Of a stretch of 5,675 nt of DNA, positions 1-5,675 are shown one piece after another. Numbering within the stretch: position 1 is the first letter of the stretch; each line of letters begins with the position of its first letter. A model generated the notes under the pieces. The model was not told where the DNA came from, did not search any database, and was given only the letters and a program-made list of their open reading frames with translations. Source of the DNA: a virus (taxonomy: Duplodnaviria; Heunggongvirae; Uroviricota; Caudoviricetes); the IMG/VR virus record IMGVR_UViG_2695420514_000021. The stretch is one strand, 5' to 3'. The position numbers and the translations under genes are program-made.

Positions 1-756
1 GAAATTATCAGTAAGATTGGTGCCGATGCTGTGGCATTGCCTGAGAATTTCCGCATTCATGATCTGGAAAAATTTAATTTAAATCGCTTCCGTTTCCGTG
101 GTGCGCTTTCCACTGCCAGCATCGATGACTTTACCCGTTATTCTAAAGATCTTGCAGATGAAGGCACCCGCTGCTTTATCGATGCCGATAATATGCGAGC
201 AGTCAGTGTGCTTAACCTGGGTACTATTGATGAACCAGGTCACGCAGATAACACCGCCACTCTCAAACTGAAAAAGACAGCACCGTTCTCTGCCCTGTTG
301 TCTGTTAACGGCGAGCGTAACTCCCAGAAGTCACTGGCAGAATGGATTGAAGACTGGGCCGACTACCTTGTGGGCTTTGATGCTAATGGTGACGCTATTC
401 AGGCAACAAAAGCGGCTGCGGCGGTCCGTAAAATCACGATTGAAGCAAACCAGACCGCTGATTTTGAAGATAATGACTTCAGCGGCAAACGCTCCCTGAT
501 GGAGTCTGTCGAAGCGAAGACCAAAGACATTATGCCAGTGGCATTTGAATTTAAATGCGTTCCGTTTGAAGGTCTGAAAGAACGTCCATTTAAATTACGC
601 CTCAGCATTATCACTGGCGATCGTCCTGTACTGGTTCTGCGCATTATTCAGCTGGAAGCGGTGCAGGAAGAAATGGCTAACGAATTTCGTGATCTGCTTG
701 TTGAGAAATTTAAAGACAGCAAAGTAGAAACCTTTATTGGTACTTTCACCGCCTGA
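1..756 (+). CDS. yfdQ: YfdQ-like prophage protein (DUF2303 family), 5'-truncated by the window edge
   Basis: The open frame runs in-frame from nt 1 ([17 protein letters not shown]...) to TGA at 754-756, so the GTG at 31 is internal, not the start. The translation matches my recollection of CPS-53 YfdQ, and the gene sits directly upstream of yfdR/yfdS-like genes as in K-12. Confidence 0.8.
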
Positions 757-768
757 TTTCATTACTGC

Positions 769-795
769 AAATGCCCCTGCGGGGGCATTTATGGA
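769..795 (+). terminator. Putative rho-independent terminator or attenuator hairpin after the yfdQ-like gene
   Basis: Perfect inverted repeat AATGCCCC (770-777), loop TGCG, GGGGCATT (782-789), followed by TTAT. The U-tract is short, so it may be a partial terminator or processing site within the operon. Confidence 0.45.
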
Positions 796-883
796 AACAT
801 AATTTACTCAATAATCGCCGGATAGTGAGGGCTTCCTTTTACCAGAATTCAGCGCGGTGCAGCGCATATACGTGGAGAACAAA

Positions 884-1420
884 ATGTCATTTATTAAAAC
901 TTTTTCCGGGAAGCATTTTTATTATGACAGGATAAATAAAGACGACATCGTTATTAACGATATCGCGGTTTCCCTTTCAAATATCTGTCGCTTTGCAGGA
1001 CATCTTTCACACTTCTACAGCGTCGCCCAACATGCGGTGCTTTGCAGCCAGCTGGTACCGCAGGAATTTGCTTTTGAAGCGTTAATGCATGATGCAACAG
1101 AAGCATATTGCCAGGACATCCCCGCACCACTGAAACGCCTTCTTCCTGACTATAAACGGATGGAAGAAAAAATAGACGCCGTAATCCGTGAGAAATACGG
1201 GTTACCTCCTGTTATGAGCACGCCAGTGAAATATGCCGATCTCATTATGCTGGCAACCGAACGCCGCGATCTCGGGCTTGATGATGGCTCTTTCTGGCCT
1301 GTACTGGAAGGTATCCCGGCGACAGAGATGTTCAAAGTTATTCCACTGTCACCAGGCCATGCCTACGGGATGTTTATGGAACGTTTTAACGAGTTATCGG
1401 AGTTACGCAAATGCGCATGA
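884..1420 (+). CDS. yfdR: HD-domain phosphohydrolase (5'-deoxynucleotidase YfdR-like), 178 aa
   Basis: ATG at 884 is preceded by GGAGA at 873-877. The translation has a His...His-Asp signature (GHLSH; MHD at codons 68-70, nt 1085-1093) typical of HD phosphohydrolases. Length and sequence match my recollection of CPS-53 YfdR. The in-frame ATG at 857 lacks a good RBS. Confidence 0.88.
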   Translation: MSFIKTFSGKHFYYDRINKDDIVINDIAVSLSNICRFAGHLSHFYSVAQHAVLCSQLVPQEFAFEALMHDATEAYCQDIPAPLKRLLPDYKRMEEKIDAVIREKYGLPPVMSTPVKYADLIMLATERRDLGLDDGSFWPVLEGIPATEMFKVIPLSPGHAYGMFMERFNELSELRKCA

Positions 1421-1773
1421 ATGTTTTCGAAATGGAAGGGTTTCTTCGCGGGAAATGTGTACCGCGAGATCTGAAAGTGAACGAAACAAATGCTGAGTAC
1501 CTGGTACGTAAATTCGATGCGCTTGAAGCTAAATGTACGGCACTGGAAAACAAAATAATACCAGTGTCAGCTGAACTGCCACCAGCAAATGAAAGTGTTC
1601 TGTTATTTGATGCTAACGGAGAAGGCTGGCTAATTGGCTGGCGTTCTCTCTGGTACACCTGGGGACAAAAAGAAACCGGAGAATGGCAGTGGACATTTCA
1701 GGTCGGGGACCTTGAAAACGTCAATATCACTCACTGGGCAGTAATGCCGAAAGCACCGGAGAATAAGAAATGA
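1411..1773 (+). CDS. yfdS: YfdS-like prophage protein (DUF551-type), 120 aa
   Basis: ATG at 1411 with GGAG at 1399-1402. It overlaps the yfdR stop (TGA 1418-1420), indicating translational coupling. A Trp-rich C-terminus (GWLIGWRSLWYTWGQKETGEWQW) is typical of this family. A start at ATG 1417 is an alternative. Confidence 0.8.
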   Translation: MRMNVFEMEGFLRGKCVPRDLKVNETNAEYLVRKFDALEAKCTALENKIIPVSAELPPANESVLLFDANGEGWLIGWRSLWYTWGQKETGEWQWTFQVGDLENVNITHWAVMPKAPENKK

Positions 1774-1973
1774 GCGTGATAAAAACTCATACAGGAATTG
1801 TTATCACCCGAGACGGTCCGCAGGTAAAAAAACTGCACCAGACAAAGCGGATGTGGGTCGTCGGAAAAAACGAGTTTTACCACAAAGAAACCGGACGCCG
1901 CCACTTTGCAGAAAATACGCGCCGCCGACTGCTGATCGACAGCATCAAGCCTATCGAGGTGAAGCATGTTTAA
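1770..1973 (+). CDS. Small hypothetical phage protein, 67 aa, basic
   Basis: ATG at 1770 overlaps the yfdS stop (ATGA at 1770-1773). GGAGA at 1758-1762 gives RBS spacing of about 7 nt. Coding is supported mainly by the coupled arrangement; no family recognised. Confidence 0.55.
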   Translation: MSVIKTHTGIVITRDGPQVKKLHQTKRMWVVGKNEFYHKETGRRHFAENTRRRLLIDSIKPIEVKHV

Positions 1974-2205
1974 ACAGAACGAAAAATCTATCGCTCAAAT
2001 TGCTGAGTATATCCCGCGTGCGTGCCGGGGTATGCAGTTGCAGGAAGCCAAAGCGCGCCTGGAGAAAAAAATTGCGCTCTATATCGATGACGGCTGTGAT
2101 GCTGCCGTTCTTAACGCAGCGTTCGCGCCAGCTCTTAACAGTCATACGCGGGAGTCTTTTTTTTCGCGCATCGCAGCGCAGATCCGTAAAGGAGGCAACC
2201 AGTGA
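1966..2205 (+). CDS. Small hypothetical phage protein, 79 aa
   Basis: ATG at 1966 overlaps the preceding stop (TAA 1971-1973) and is preceded by GAGGTGAAGC. The gene ends in a GTGA overlap with the next gene. No family recognised. Confidence 0.6.
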   Translation: MFKQNEKSIAQIAEYIPRACRGMQLQEAKARLEKKIALYIDDGCDAAVLNAAFAPALNSHTRESFFSRIAAQIRKGGNQ

Positions 2206-2756
2206 GCGAGATTAACTATCAGGCTCTGCGACTGGCGGCAGAAAATGCAACACCAGGCGAATGGTGTGCTGATGACTACCATGGAGTAATTGCCGATGCC
2301 GGACTGAACGCCAATTACTACATAGCATCATGCTCAGGACCAGATAATCGCGCCAATAAACGATTCATAGCCGCCGCCAATCCTGCCACCGTCTTGGCGC
2401 TGCTGGATGAGCTGGAAGCAGCAGAGAAGCGAAACGCTGAATTACAAAGCGAGAATGCATACATCCGCAACCGGTACAAAGAACTGGACCTATTAATCGG
2501 GAAAAACATTCTGGTCATGCAGGCTGCCATTATCGAATGGCAGGCAACTGGCGACGCTAAGAGCGGACTGGCATGGATTTATAACACACTGTTTGGCCCT
2601 GGCGAATTACCGGACGAATCTGAGAAAGATGCTCAGGCCTACTTTAATCGCAAATATGCACCGATTGACGAAAAGCTTATGGCGCTTCACAAGTGGTTTT
2701 GGGAACAAAGTGAAGCCGAGCGCGCCGCCGCCAACATTGGTGTGAAGGGGAAGTGA
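2202..2756 (+). CDS. Ead/Ea22-like family protein, 184 aa
   Basis: GTG start at 2202 with a strong RBS AAAGGAGG at 2188-2195. The N-terminus (MSEINYQALR..AENATPGEW) and the DNRANKRFIAAANPATVLALLDELEAAEKRNAELQ segment resemble Ead/Ea22-like proteins of lambdoid prophages as I recall them. A central segment looks coiled-coil. Confidence 0.7.
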   Translation: MSEINYQALRLAAENATPGEWCADDYHGVIADAGLNANYYIASCSGPDNRANKRFIAAANPATVLALLDELEAAEKRNAELQSENAYIRNRYKELDLLIGKNILVMQAAIIEWQATGDAKSGLAWIYNTLFGPGELPDESEKDAQAYFNRKYAPIDEKLMALHKWFWEQSEAERAAANIGVKGK

Positions 2757-2757
2757 G

Positions 2758-2949
2758 ATGAACGGACAAATCTCAATTGTTCGACCGGGAGCATGTGACG
2801 ATTGCGAGATACGAATGATTATTCGTCTGGCGAGGGGGAAAACAATAACTGCTCTCATTACTCCTGAAAATCTCGCATTAGCATTAACAGGAAAGTCAGA
2901 CCTGCCAGTAGAGCTAAAGCTGCGAAATATTGAGATTAAAGTGAAATAG
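2758..2949 (+). CDS. Small hypothetical phage protein, 63 aa
   Basis: ATG at 2758 lies 1 nt after the upstream stop (TGA 2754-2756), with GAAGGGGAAG just upstream as RBS. No family recognised. Confidence 0.5.
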   Translation: MNGQISIVRPGACDDCEIRMIIRLARGKTITALITPENLALALTGKSDLPVELKLRNIEIKVK

Positions 2950-2951
2950 TT

Positions 2952-3719
2952 ATGAATACTCTTACCAAAGAATGGTTACAGAACACGATTACCAGCATTG
3001 AGTCAGCACGGGATGAAATACCGTTCGGACTCGATGAAGATCAAAACAACATGCTTACCGCATTAAAAATTGCACTGGCATCACTGGCAGCAGTATCAGA
3101 TGAACGAGCAGCCTATGAATTATTTATGGAGAAGCGTTTCGGGGAATCTGTAGATCGTCGCAGAGCAAAAAATGGCGATTGCGAATACATGGCATGGGAT
3201 ATGGCGCTTGGCTGGATTATCTGGTGTCACCGCACCGCCATGCTTCAGGGTAACCAACCTGTAAGCCAAACTTACAAGTTTCCACAAACGCAGTTTGAAG
3301 AGGTTGCTGACCTCTACGAAATGCAATTTGATGACGGACGCACTTGTGCCTTTCATAGTGATGTGCAAAAGGCTGCACAATGGCTTCAGGCATGCGACGG
3401 AAACAGGGTTCAGGAATACGTGAAGTTGGAACGATTGCAGAACGCGCTGTCTGATAACTCTCCAGTAACTCCGGATGGTTGGGTTATGGTTCCGAAGAAA
3501 CTAACCGCTGAGAACGGCGCTAAAGGTGTGCTATCCGGTGAATTTTCAGAATCTACGTTTATAAGCTGCCCGGAATGTTTTGGCGATGATGATTGCGATA
3601 CCTGTGACGGGAGCGGACGTATTGAAATTAAAGTGCCAGTCACGTGGTCGACCATAAAATCTATCTGGGATAAAGGTATCGAGTATTTTGCAGCAAAACC
3701 ATCACAAGAGGTGAAGTGA
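2952..3719 (+). CDS. Hypothetical phage protein, 255 aa, with a C-terminal DnaJ-type zinc-ribbon-like motif
   Basis: Long ORF with ATG at 2952, 2 nt after the upstream stop. The motif CPECFGDDDCDTCDGSG at nt 3567-3617 contains a CxxCxGxG unit plus a second CxxC. The RBS is weak, so the exact start is uncertain. Confidence 0.75.
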   Translation: MNTLTKEWLQNTITSIESARDEIPFGLDEDQNNMLTALKIALASLAAVSDERAAYELFMEKRFGESVDRRRAKNGDCEYMAWDMALGWIIWCHRTAMLQGNQPVSQTYKFPQTQFEEVADLYEMQFDDGRTCAFHSDVQKAAQWLQACDGNRVQEYVKLERLQNALSDNSPVTPDGWVMVPKKLTAENGAKGVLSGEFSESTFISCPECFGDDDCDTCDGSGRIEIKVPVTWSTIKSIWDKGIEYFAAKPSQEVK

Positions 3720-4291
3720 TGAACAACTTAATGATCGACCTTGAGACGATGGGGAAAAATAAGGATGCACCGATCGTTTCCATTGGCGCGGTGTTCTTCA
3801 CTCCAGAAACCGGAGACATCGGACAAGAATTCTATGCGGTTGTCAGCCTAGACAGTGCTATGAAGCAAGGAGCTACACCTGACGGCGATACCATCCTGTG
3901 GTGGTTGAAACAAAGCCCTGAAGCGCGAGCTGCAATCTGTATTGATGATACTTTGTCGATCAGCGATGCTCTCTCAGAACTAAACCATTTCATTAACCGG
4001 CACGCAGACAATACGAAATATTTAAAAGTCTGGGGTAACGGGGCCACCTTCGACAACGTAATTTTACGTGGAGCTTATGAGCGAGCAGGACAAATCTGCC
4101 CGTGGGCGTACTGGAATGACCACGATGTACGCACGATCGTTACGCTTGGGCGTTCCATCGGATTCGACCCCAAAATGGACATGCCTTTCGATGGCGAACG
4201 GCACAACGCCCTGGCTGATGCCCGTCATCAGGCAAAATATGTTTCCGCTATCTGGCAGAAATTAATTCCTGCCACCAGCACAGAATTATGA
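3719..4291 (+). CDS. Prophage 3'-5' exonuclease of the DEDDh (DnaQ-like) superfamily, 190 aa
   Basis: ATG at 3719 (the GTG at 3716 overlaps the upstream TGA), with GAGGTG at 3706-3711 as RBS. The translation shows Exo I (MIDLETMG), Exo II (WGNGATFDNVIL) and Exo III (HNALADARH, HxxxxD) motifs in the expected order. This small exonuclease is a conserved resident next to xis/int in lambdoid prophages; the truncated ypdJ of K-12 is the equivalent remnant, as far as I recall. Confidence 0.85.
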   Translation: MNNLMIDLETMGKNKDAPIVSIGAVFFTPETGDIGQEFYAVVSLDSAMKQGATPDGDTILWWLKQSPEARAAICIDDTLSISDALSELNHFINRHADNTKYLKVWGNGATFDNVILRGAYERAGQICPWAYWNDHDVRTIVTLGRSIGFDPKMDMPFDGERHNALADARHQAKYVSAIWQKLIPATSTEL

Positions 4292-4327
4292 TTTTCCCGG
4301 GTGCAGCCGGTTTTGATGGAGAAAATT

Positions 4328-4597
4328 ATGAACACCTTGTTTTTACTGATGGCTGAATTCAATACCCCAAACATTGAACTCTCAGCAGTTAGTCAAAAAT
4401 ACTTTGGTATGAGTCCAGCCACAGCAGAAGCAAAAGCAAACGCTTGTAAGTTGCCTGTACCTACATATCGCATCGGTACATCACAAAAAGCAAAACGCTG
4501 CATCAACATTCAGGATCTTGCGGAATATATTGACAAAAGACGGGAAGAAGGGCGAGCTGAGTGGGAAAAAGTCAGAACGGAAAAAAAATATAACTAA
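4328..4597 (+). CDS. Excisionase-like DNA-binding protein (PrtN/AlpA-type), 89 aa
   Basis: ATG at 4328 with GGAG at 4317-4320. The N-terminus MNTLFLLMAEF and the ...SQKAKRCINIQDLAEYIDKRREEG segment resemble the PrtN family as I recall it. It is the last gene of the + strand operon, the canonical xis position. The in-frame ATG at 4301 lacks an RBS. Confidence 0.75.
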   Translation: MNTLFLLMAEFNTPNIELSAVSQKYFGMSPATAEAKANACKLPVPTYRIGTSQKAKRCINIQDLAEYIDKRREEGRAEWEKVRTEKKYN

Positions 4598-4610
4598 ACT
4601 AAAACTATGG

Positions 4611-4642
4611 ATAACCCGTATATGTACGGGTTATTTTTCTTT
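4611..4642. terminator. Rho-independent terminator between convergent genes, probably bidirectional
   Basis: Stem AACCCGTA (4613-4620), loop TATG, TACGGGTT (4625-4632), followed on the + strand by ATTTTTCTTTAT. On the - strand the T-tract is poorer and starts a few nt after the stem. The TAA stop of the - strand gene (4631-4633) lies inside the stem. Confidence 0.7.
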
Positions 4643-5179
4643 ATCACTATCTTTTCTTGATTTGAACAATCCACTAACAACGAAACCAACCAAACCAACA
4701 ATACTAATTGTACTTGTACCTAGTAATGCAACGATCGCTTCAACTGGAGGCTTTCCTTCATGTGCAATAAGAAACGATGTAAACATTGCGACAACGAATA
4801 AGCACCAACACGACATAAACCAAACCGTGAATGATGCCATTTTTGTCCGGAGCTCATTGTCTATTTCTTTACCAGTTGCGTCAGCTATCTTATCCCGTAC
4901 TTGTGATTTGAGCATATCAAGCTGAGCTTGAAGACTGTCCATTCTGTTCTGCTGCATAAACTCATGCAATGCACCAGTATTAGAACCAAACTCTTCTTCC
5001 TCCAGAATAGCCTTATTTTCTGAAGAAGAATCATCATCGCGTTCATGATTAGACGGCTCAAATGCGGATTCAAAAGCCTGCTCTTGACTGTCAGTAGAGT
5101 TTAAGGATGCTTCAGAGCGACCATTTTCAACACCTGCGGCCGCTCCGATCAGTTTATAGATATCTGAATTATGAGACAT
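4631..5179 (-). CDS. Hypothetical membrane protein, 182 aa: acidic Ser/Glu/Asp-rich N-terminal domain plus two predicted C-terminal TM helices; candidate toxin/effector partner of the upstream Panacea-like gene
   Basis: ATG at 5179-5177 (- strand) preceded by AGGGATGAC, stop TAA at 4633-4631. The N-terminal roughly 110 aa are hydrophilic and acidic (ERDDDSSSENKAILEEEEFG) with a likely helical stretch (MDSLQAQLDMLKSQVRDKIADATG). Two hydrophobic stretches follow (FTVWFMSCWCLFVVAMFTSFLIA and AIVALLGTSTISIVGLVGFVVSGLF, about nt 4664-4831). No family recognised. Confidence 0.72.
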   Translation of the reverse strand: MSHNSDIYKLIGAAAGVENGRSEASLNSTDSQEQAFESAFEPSNHERDDDSSSENKAILEEEEFGSNTGALHEFMQQNRMDSLQAQLDMLKSQVRDKIADATGKEIDNELRTKMASFTVWFMSCWCLFVVAMFTSFLIAHEGKPPVEAIVALLGTSTISIVGLVGFVVSGLFKSRKDSDKEK

Positions 5180-5201
5180 GTCATCCCTGAATATTACTTT
5201 T

Positions 5202-5675
5202 TCAGAGGCCCTGACATTGCTGTCGGTTATTCAATAAATCATGATAATAAGCCTTGATCGCATCATTTGAGATGATCGACGAGCCAATACCATTATAAGC
5301 TTGTGACCAAGGCGTACCTGGCATATGAGTTAGAGTTGATAACTCAATTCCATTTTTCGAGCCGTAAAACTTATAAACAGCCCCGATAATGCTCTCTGCT
5401 TGCGGATCCATAGTAACGATGCCACCAAAAGGAGCTACTGCTACATTCGTAACAGGTTTATTCCCATAGTCTTTGAAAGCATCGTACATTCCAGGAATAA
5501 CTGGACCGTACTTCCACGCGGAGACACATTCATTGAGCAAAGGCTTACCTGTTAATGCTAAATAGTAACCATGGGCAATATAAGTAAGCTTCTGCAGTTG
5601 CATGTGGGTCAGAGGATTATGATGTTGGTTTCCCAACGTTATGAATTTATTGGCTATTTGTACCGGACTGTACAT
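5202..5675 (-). CDS. Panacea-domain (DUF4065; COG3600/GepA, SocA-like) protein, 157 aa; putative antitoxin or adaptor
   Basis: The ATG is the last three nt of the window (5675-5673, - strand), stop TGA at 5204-5202. The N-terminus MYSPVQIANKFI and the core LQKLTYIAHGYYLALTGKPLLNECVSAWKYGPVIPGMYDAFKDYG (about nt 5484-5600) match the Panacea/DUF4065 pattern as I recall it. The ORF could extend beyond the window edge, since no upstream stop or RBS is visible. Confidence 0.75.
   Translation of the reverse strand: MYSPVQIANKFITLGNQHHNPLTHMQLQKLTYIAHGYYLALTGKPLLNECVSAWKYGPVIPGMYDAFKDYGNKPVTNVAVAPFGGIVTMDPQAESIIGAVYKFYGSKNGIELSTLTHMPGTPWSQAYNGIGSSIISNDAIKAYYHDLLNNRQQCQGL

Follow-up and report, generated by a model that had tools for sequence, protein, structure and literature searches.

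The minus-strand gene pair at positions 4631-5675 of IMG/VR virus record IMGVR_UViG_2695420514_000021, a 5,675-nt stretch of Caudoviricetes DNA that was analyzed in full and is referred to here as the window, is identified by its sequence as the E. coli PanA-PanT toxin-antitoxin system, which is not new but was already published in 2022 (Kurata et al., 2022, PNAS 119:e2102212119, PMC8832971). The sequence of the window belongs to a lambdoid prophage of E. coli, of which it covers the early-left region. We consider it highly probable (approximately 0.93) that the panA-panT operon forms a type II toxin-antitoxin cassette and that a dusA-integrating prophage of this lambdoid kind carries it as a moron. 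A sequence-only reading of the window had described two minus-strand genes separated by 22 bp, adjoining an excisionase gene (xis) and opposed to the phage operon, had recognized the 157-residue product of one as Panacea-like and assigned two transmembrane (TM) segments to the 182-residue product of the other, and had proposed an antitoxin-first toxin-antitoxin operon with a membrane-targeting toxin, sitting as a moron beside xis. The analyses below bear out each of these points, the last through the match to the PanAT that Kurata et al. (2022) assayed from E. coli. The further suggestion of an abortive-infection cassette is still a hypothesis. The same reading was mistaken, however, in regarding the pairing as not characterized: that study assayed an antitoxin identical to the one in the window and a toxin 97% identical to its PanT, and the partner for which the reading recognized no family belongs to toxin cluster T3 and to phrog_13343.

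Identity with the published E. coli pair

Table 1 of Kurata et al. (2022) lists nine experimentally verified PanAT pairs, one of which is from Escherichia coli STEC O31 and is entered as PanA_Esc.col. WP_000287252.1 / PanT_Esc.col. WP_000019185.1, Membrane. The window PanA was identical at 157 of 157 residues to WP_000287252.1, as annotated in RefSeq E. coli, while the window PanT was identical to WP_000019185.1 at 177 of 182 residues (97.3%), with the substitutions E61A, V130A, A131G, T134V and S178G; the window allele itself is WP_059274466.1. WP_000019185.1 was located by searching the DNA of the matching IMG/VR allele against E. coli genomes. It was found in strain STEC1588, with the same PanA as partner and flanked by the same xis. 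In the published dataset, the E. coli STEC O31 locus is assigned to toxin cluster T3 (approximately 106 rows), with the order A|T, a gap of 22, the result "TA" and the label "NotPhage" (Kurata et al., 2022). Both the order and the gap match those of the window, which supports its identity with the published pair, and the window PanT and WP_000019185.1 fell into one 90% cluster of the protein collection, placing the window protein in T3.

Similar findings were obtained with phage records. By BLAST, positions 4300-5675 of the window matched Escherichia phage PhiR47_1 (PV340566) at 98.1% identity, and this GenBank record names the two genes "PanA antitoxin" and "PanT toxin". Taken together, the testable defining features of PanAT are all present in the window, i.e., a Panacea antitoxin, a conserved bicistronic pair and a toxin with T3 sequence and architecture. 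Growth inhibition, and its rescue by PanA, are published for the identical PanA and the 97% identical PanT (Kurata et al., 2022).

Sequence and architecture of PanA and PanT

The open reading frame (ORF) panA (5202-5675, minus strand, ATG start) encodes a 157-residue protein, of which residues 27-123 matched profile positions 1-112 of 113 of PF13274 (SocA_Panacea, formerly DUF4065), with E = 5.9e-18 and a score of 66.3 bits against a cutoff of 25.7. The GPV signature of the Panacea domain, which is required for neutralization in Vibrio harveyi PanA (Kurata et al., 2022), was read from the translation as G57-P58-V59 within WKYGPVIPG (codons at 5499-5507, minus strand). PanA is a standalone Panacea domain that lacks an N-terminal DNA-binding domain, in agreement with its "noNTD" entry in the published dataset (Kurata et al., 2022), and classical type II autoregulation is therefore not evident. 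The best NCBIfam match of PanA was to SocA_antitoxin (NF047745; E = 1e-27), at 97 bits and thus far below the equivalog cutoff of 190, so that PanA has a domain in common with SocA without being its equivalog. Sequence searches of the PDB with PanA and PanT gave no meaningful match, the best being of the kind of a WD-40 repeat protein or lamin, at E of approximately 0.1-0.3.

The second ORF, panT (4631-5179, minus strand, ATG start), encodes a protein of 182 residues for which Pfam, NCBIfam and PADLOC searches returned no family, and which gave a full match to phrog_13343, a group of unknown function (E = 1.2e-112). Its residues 1-70 are acidic, with a net charge of -12, and largely disordered. 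Two hydrophobic segments follow, at residues ~115-139 and ~147-172, for which Kyte-Doolittle means over 19 residues reached 2.15 and 2.22, respectively; these are the predicted TM helix 1 (TM1; 4763-4837, minus strand) and TM helix 2 (TM2, ALLGTSTISIVGLVGFVVSGLFK; 4664-4741, minus strand), ahead of which lies a conserved pre-membrane helix (residues ~68-114). An acidic N-terminus with two hydrophobic segments fits the published description of T3 toxins (Kurata et al., 2022).

In an alignment of 35 Enterobacterales homologues, having 31-93% identity to the window protein, the first ~60 residues of PanT were hypervariable, whereas an invariant juxtamembrane motif, G103-x-x-I106-D107-N108-x-L110-R111, was found ahead of TM1, which itself contains the invariant residues F121-M122, W125-C126 and F128-V129. 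Conservation in TM2 was far above that of the rest of the protein, with positions 151-173 nearly or fully invariant, and the segment is rich in small residues. Such a pattern would be expected if the helix were packed within an oligomeric pore. AlphaFold2 (AF2), given the 35-sequence alignment, predicted a helix at residues 68-139, a loop at 140-145 and a second helix at 146-179, with a predicted local distance difference test (pLDDT) score of 71-85 in the membrane segments, and of 79-85 in the TM1 segment of the first helix.

Relatives of PanT were recovered by protein search from Klebsiella, Salmonella, Enterobacter, Providencia, Serratia, Pantoea and Cronobacter. A scan of one-genome-per-species contigs with PanT peptide patterns yielded 0 confirmed relatives; given that the protein search did find relatives in other genera, this null result is probably due to the patterns, which were short peptides requiring an exact match, and to how rare the cassette is, and does not point to true absence.

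Expression signals and boundaries of the cassette

The two genes are separated by a spacer of 22 bp (5180-5201, minus strand), which carries a weak ribosome-binding site, AGGGA, for panT. A gap of the same length was present at nine related loci, and the arrangement is consistent with a single panA-panT transcript. On the opposite strand, the last gene of the early-left operon is xis, which belongs to the context of the cassette and lies outside it (ORF 4301-4597, plus strand, with the RefSeq-equivalent start at 4328). Its product matched PF11112 (E = 3.8e-23) and phrog_1300, "excisionase" (E = 6e-40), and the locus is annotated in RefSeq as an 89-90-aa "pyocin activator PrtN family protein". 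Between xis and panT lies a hairpin at 4609-4636 with a 12-bp stem, a 4-nt loop and T-runs on both sides, which overlaps the panT stop codon. In a terminator scan this hairpin was called as an intrinsic terminator on either strand, so that xis and panT converge on a common terminator. The G+C content falls to 0.37-0.42 over positions 4350-5400, as compared with 0.45-0.54 in most of the phage operon, a difference that is real but modest; the sequence-only reading had pointed to a foreign base composition, and to that extent it holds.

The window stops at position 5675, with which the panA start codon begins, with the result that the promoter and the attachment site fall outside. The same truncation was seen more widely, in that 17 of the 31 IMG/VR loci begin precisely at the panA start, which indicates that prophage boundary calls drop the promoter together with an attachment arm of ~300 bp; the true end of the prophage lies beyond position 5675 of the window. 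The missing region was read in related loci as the 313 bp between panA and a displaced 5' fragment of dusA (e.g., 4378-4690, minus strand, in locus L003). It contains a TTGACA-16-TATAAT promoter that agrees with the sigma-70 consensus at 12 of 12 positions, lies ~155 nt before the panA ATG and thus just beyond the window, and was invariant in all seven loci compared. A strong ribosome-binding site, GAGGAGG, precedes panA. The hexamer ACAGTG also occurs four times in the 313 bp, on either side of the promoter, against a shuffle expectation of 0.12; these repeats could be arm-type sites for Int or Xis, or alternatively an operator.

Distribution, phage context and allele variation

The sequence-only reading depended on the two genes co-occurring in other genomes, and they were found to do so. 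Of 5426 complete E. coli genomes, 79 (1.5%) carried the cassette, in every case (79/79) as a single-copy, chromosomal and complete pair, and 30 of the 31 IMG/VR loci with PanT had PanA directly upstream, the remaining one being cut at a contig end. In every locus with enough flanking sequence, the cassette lay ~300 bp from a 105-bp pseudo-fragment of dusA, which encodes tRNA-dihydrouridine synthase; the fragment marks the prophage attachment junction. The record of PhiR47_1 is linear and has the integrase gene (int) at the end opposite the cassette, from which the circular order int, phage attachment site (attP), panA, panT, xis follows. The cassette was also found in phage 1720a-02 and in the Stx2k-converting phage phiSTEC1575-Stx2k, and its presence in deposited phage genomes means that the "NotPhage" label of the published dataset understates its association with phages.

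More distant relatives of the pair were found in other settings. One IMG/VR locus carries a diverged pair (64% identity for PanT, 76% for PanA) beside a serine invertase and tail-fibre genes. For PanT homologues at 36-45% identity, a PF13274 gene was directly upstream in seven of seven places, and where homologous pairs of this kind occur in P2-like prophages, their position is between gpA, a replication gene, and the gene for the portal protein. Of two such P2-like pairs (locus L055, 4051-5962, and locus L053, 3964-5724), one stands beside a cyclic oligonucleotide-based anti-phage signalling system (CBASS) operon, consisting of a DncV-like nucleotidyltransferase and a Cap15-like effector, and the other beside a 586-aa reverse transcriptase. 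The position between attP and xis was also occupied differently: phage mEp460 has related xis and int genes, and its slot (locus L017, 3858-4761, gp24 and gp23) holds two unrelated minus-strand genes of 57 and 177 aa, neither of which had a match in a Pfam search. The attP-xis slot thus holds variable cargo, and the two mEp460 genes may constitute another uncharacterized two-gene cargo.

At least 80% of the whole window was matched in one place by only four of the 5426 E. coli genomes, and many genomes matched positions 1-4578 but lacked the cassette. A high degree of mosaicism characterizes the early-left operon, and the frequent occurrence of 1-4578 without panAT indicates that cassette and operon have separate histories.

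To compare alleles, positions 4631-5675 of the window were set against the related loci L001, L005, L007, L008 and L009. The panA alleles differed by 9-10 synonymous and 0 nonsynonymous codon changes, whereas between panT alleles as many as 16 synonymous and 14 nonsynonymous changes were counted, the latter clustering in the acidic N-terminal part and in TM1 (W120C, C124W, V130A, A131V/G, T134V). The panA gene is therefore under strict purifying selection, in strong asymmetry with panT. The faster-evolving partner is more often the antitoxin, and a slow panA next to a variable panT would be the reverse of this usual pattern.

Mode of action

In the published experiments, expression of E. coli PanT halted growth, and co-expression of its own PanA rescued it; in a 10 x 10 matrix no other wild-type PanA rescued E. 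coli PanT, although partial rescue was obtained with an evolved Vibrio harveyi PanA, T36M Q131L, and rescue by PanA worked in the absence of ClpXP or Lon (Kurata et al., 2022). Metabolic labelling showed simultaneous shutdown of methionine, uridine and thymidine incorporation. PanT was further found to depolarize the inner membrane, as measured with DiSC3(5), and to let SYTOX Green into the cells, which the authors read as the formation of large pores (Kurata et al., 2022). Complexes were recovered by pull-down for five other PanAT pairs in the same study. In an AF2 model of the Bartonella pair, the Panacea domain contacts the unstructured N-terminus and a short pre-TM helix of the toxin, and rescue is lost in the mutants Y56A and H120E (Ernits et al., 2023, PNAS 120:e2305393120).

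Judging from these pull-downs and the mutant-supported Bartonella model, PanA probably neutralizes E. coli PanT by binding directly to its cytoplasmic N-terminal region and pre-membrane helix. Rescue that does not depend on proteases is consistent with direct binding, and both the conservation pattern of PanT and its predicted helical hairpin fit such a combination of binding and pore formation. In the sequence of events that we propose, transcription would start at the sigma-70 promoter ~155 nt upstream of panA, pass through panA, the 22-bp spacer and panT, and end at the hairpin held in common with xis. The two-helix hairpin of PanT would insert into the inner membrane where, if left unneutralized, it would cause loss of membrane potential and open pores large enough for SYTOX Green, with the result that replication, transcription and translation would stop together. 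PanA, as a standalone Panacea domain, would neutralize its cognate PanT only, with no need for ClpXP or Lon.

Several points weigh against the identification of the window pair as an active PanAT system of this kind. The toxin allele in the window, WP_059274466.1, is not the one assayed, and three of its five substitutions lie within the predicted TM1; we infer that the five changes leave activity as it was. Complex formation has been demonstrated only for the five other PanAT systems, and the published assays all relied on over-expression from pBAD/pKK vectors (Kurata et al., 2022). Finally, the AF2 model of PanT is only moderate overall, with a mean pLDDT of 61 and a predicted template modelling score (pTM) of 0.29.

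Biological role of the cassette

A role in abortive infection or superinfection exclusion, in which the Panacea protein would detect some cue of the infecting phage and free PanT, such that the membrane collapses before the invader has finished, is a proposal that we advance tentatively and at somewhat less than even odds. Such a role addresses the purpose of the cassette and is compatible with the toxin-antitoxin mechanism. The genomic setting favours it: the cassette lies between attP and xis, in a slot whose cargo varies, and it recurs in accessory slots of otherwise unrelated temperate phages, i.e., attP-xis, the P2 gpA-gpQ locus and the tail-fibre invertase site. Of these, the gpA-gpQ locus is an established anti-phage hotspot, for which Table S5 of the corresponding survey includes "DUF4065 + hypothetical" among the arrangements found (Rousset et al., 2022), and the neighbours of the homologous pairs are a CBASS operon in one case and a reverse transcriptase in another. 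A sensor function has been hypothesized for Panacea domains, and RmrTA of phage Kita, likewise a membrane-depolarizing pair, defends against phages (Ernits et al., 2023). The strong, constitutive-looking promoter of the cassette's own would suit expression in a lysogen. However, literature searches that combined Panacea, PanAT or DUF4065 with phage defence returned no phage-challenge test of any T3-type PanAT, and neither protein matched a PADLOC-DB v2 model, with E values at chance level (0.02 and 0.03). Presence in a hotspot is, moreover, an association and not a function, as only three of eight additional P2-hotspot systems that were cloned proved active (Rousset et al., 2022). It is also possible, though on balance doubtful, that the T3-type PanAT cassette is a phage-borne system of abortive infection or superinfection exclusion in which the standalone Panacea domain is itself the sensor of a cue from the invader and PanT the pore-forming effector; the recurrence in accessory slots, the promoter and the combination of a constrained PanA (0 nonsynonymous against 9-10 synonymous changes) with a variable PanT (14 against 16) agree with this reading without proving it.

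A role in addiction or stabilization, i.e., as a module in which loss of the prophage would leave the cell with a stable toxin and no antitoxin, and hence kill it, would agree with the strict constraint on PanA. On mobile elements, toxin-antitoxin pairs classically play this part (discussed in Kurata et al., 2022), and the cassette lies at the prophage edge by the attachment site and remains intact even in degraded prophages, e.g., that of APEC O78. Neutralization is independent of Lon and ClpXP, however, and post-segregational killing would require a PanA less stable than PanT. In addition, a temperate phage must excise and replicate together with the cassette, so that killing upon excision is not obviously useful, and the cassette is present in just 1.5% of E. 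coli genomes. We regard addiction as unlikely, and it is less well supported than abortive infection or exclusion. Two further readings concern how the proteins work. PanA shares its Panacea domain with SocA, and SocA_antitoxin was its best NCBIfam match (E = 1e-27), which would be in keeping with a role as proteolytic adaptor, in which PanA would deliver the toxin to ClpXP and not block it by binding; this is very improbable, being largely refuted by rescue that persists in strains without ClpXP and Lon and by a score of 97 bits against the equivalog cutoff of 190, and PanT is in any case unrelated to SocB. Lastly, a small two-helix protein that forms large pores and has a cytoplasmic inhibitor superficially resembles a class II holin, and PanT could on that basis act like a holin in lysis, or in its timing, during the lytic cycle, with PanA as its antiholin. 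We reject this scarcely credible alternative, as the cassette has its own promoter, runs against the phage operon at a genome end far from any lysis cassette, and recurs in accessory slots of unrelated phage types; the PHROG matches, furthermore, included no lysis annotation, and cluster-T3 pairs occur in many non-enterobacterial genera (dataset of Kurata et al., 2022).

The discovery value of the pair itself is small, given that its toxicity, neutralization and membrane mechanism were published in 2022 and that phage records already name PanA and PanT. What the present analysis adds is the genomic context, namely the attP-xis slot, the occurrence in 79 of 5426 E. coli genomes and the relatives in the P2 hotspot. 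The cassette moves as a unit among unrelated temperate phages, including a Stx2k-converting one, in slots known for anti-phage cargo. If a role in phage defence were true, it would supply a function for one of the largest PanAT toxin clusters, as well as a tractable E. coli model for the proposed sensor role of Panacea.

Relation to known systems

The window pair shares with the PanAT of E. coli STEC O31 the order of antitoxin and toxin genes, the 22-bp spacer, the xis flank and, in strains with WP_000019185.1, the dusA attachment context; it differs in being clearly located in a lambdoid prophage, whereas the published locus is labelled "NotPhage". In the PanT(D11/T12)-PanA pair of Bartonella choladocola (apis), a standalone Panacea protein is likewise encoded upstream, and the toxin has a charged N-terminus and C-terminal TM helices and both depolarizes and permeabilizes membranes. 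That toxin belongs, however, to cluster T12 and not to T3, and homology between the two clusters is a suggestion of the original authors only (Kurata et al., 2022).

Among systems with other toxins, RmrT-RmrA (RosmerTA) of Gordonia phage Kita is also a phage-borne two-gene module whose toxin depolarizes and permeabilizes the membrane, although its antitoxin has an ImmA/HTH architecture in place of a Panacea domain and its toxin is unrelated in sequence to PanT. HokB is similarly a small membrane-depolarizing toxin that is unrelated in sequence to PanT; Hok systems are of type I and use RNA as the antitoxin. In SocA-SocB of Caulobacter crescentus, a type VI system, the antitoxin carries a PF13274 Panacea domain, as does PanA, and SocB targets the replication clamp. 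SocA is, however, a ClpXP adaptor (Kurata et al., 2022), in contrast to the ClpXP/Lon-independent rescue by PanA, and PanT is a membrane protein.

Other features of the window

The plus-strand early-left genes encode a DUF2303/YfdQ protein, an HD-family YfdR-like protein, a DUF551 protein, an Ead/Ea22 protein, an Rv2179c-like 3'-5' exonuclease and the PrtN-family excisionase described above. A further plus-strand ORF of 135 aa (4518-4925) overlaps panT; no gene is annotated there in RefSeq, and it is likely to be a by-product of panT on the opposite strand. The ORF at 2952-3719 (plus strand, 255 aa) was without a Pfam match and carries a C-terminal cysteine cluster, CPECFGDDDCDTCDGSGRI, which we take to resemble the CxxCxGxG zinc-finger motif of the DnaJ type. 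Its RefSeq equivalents are annotated as hypothetical or DUF551-containing proteins.

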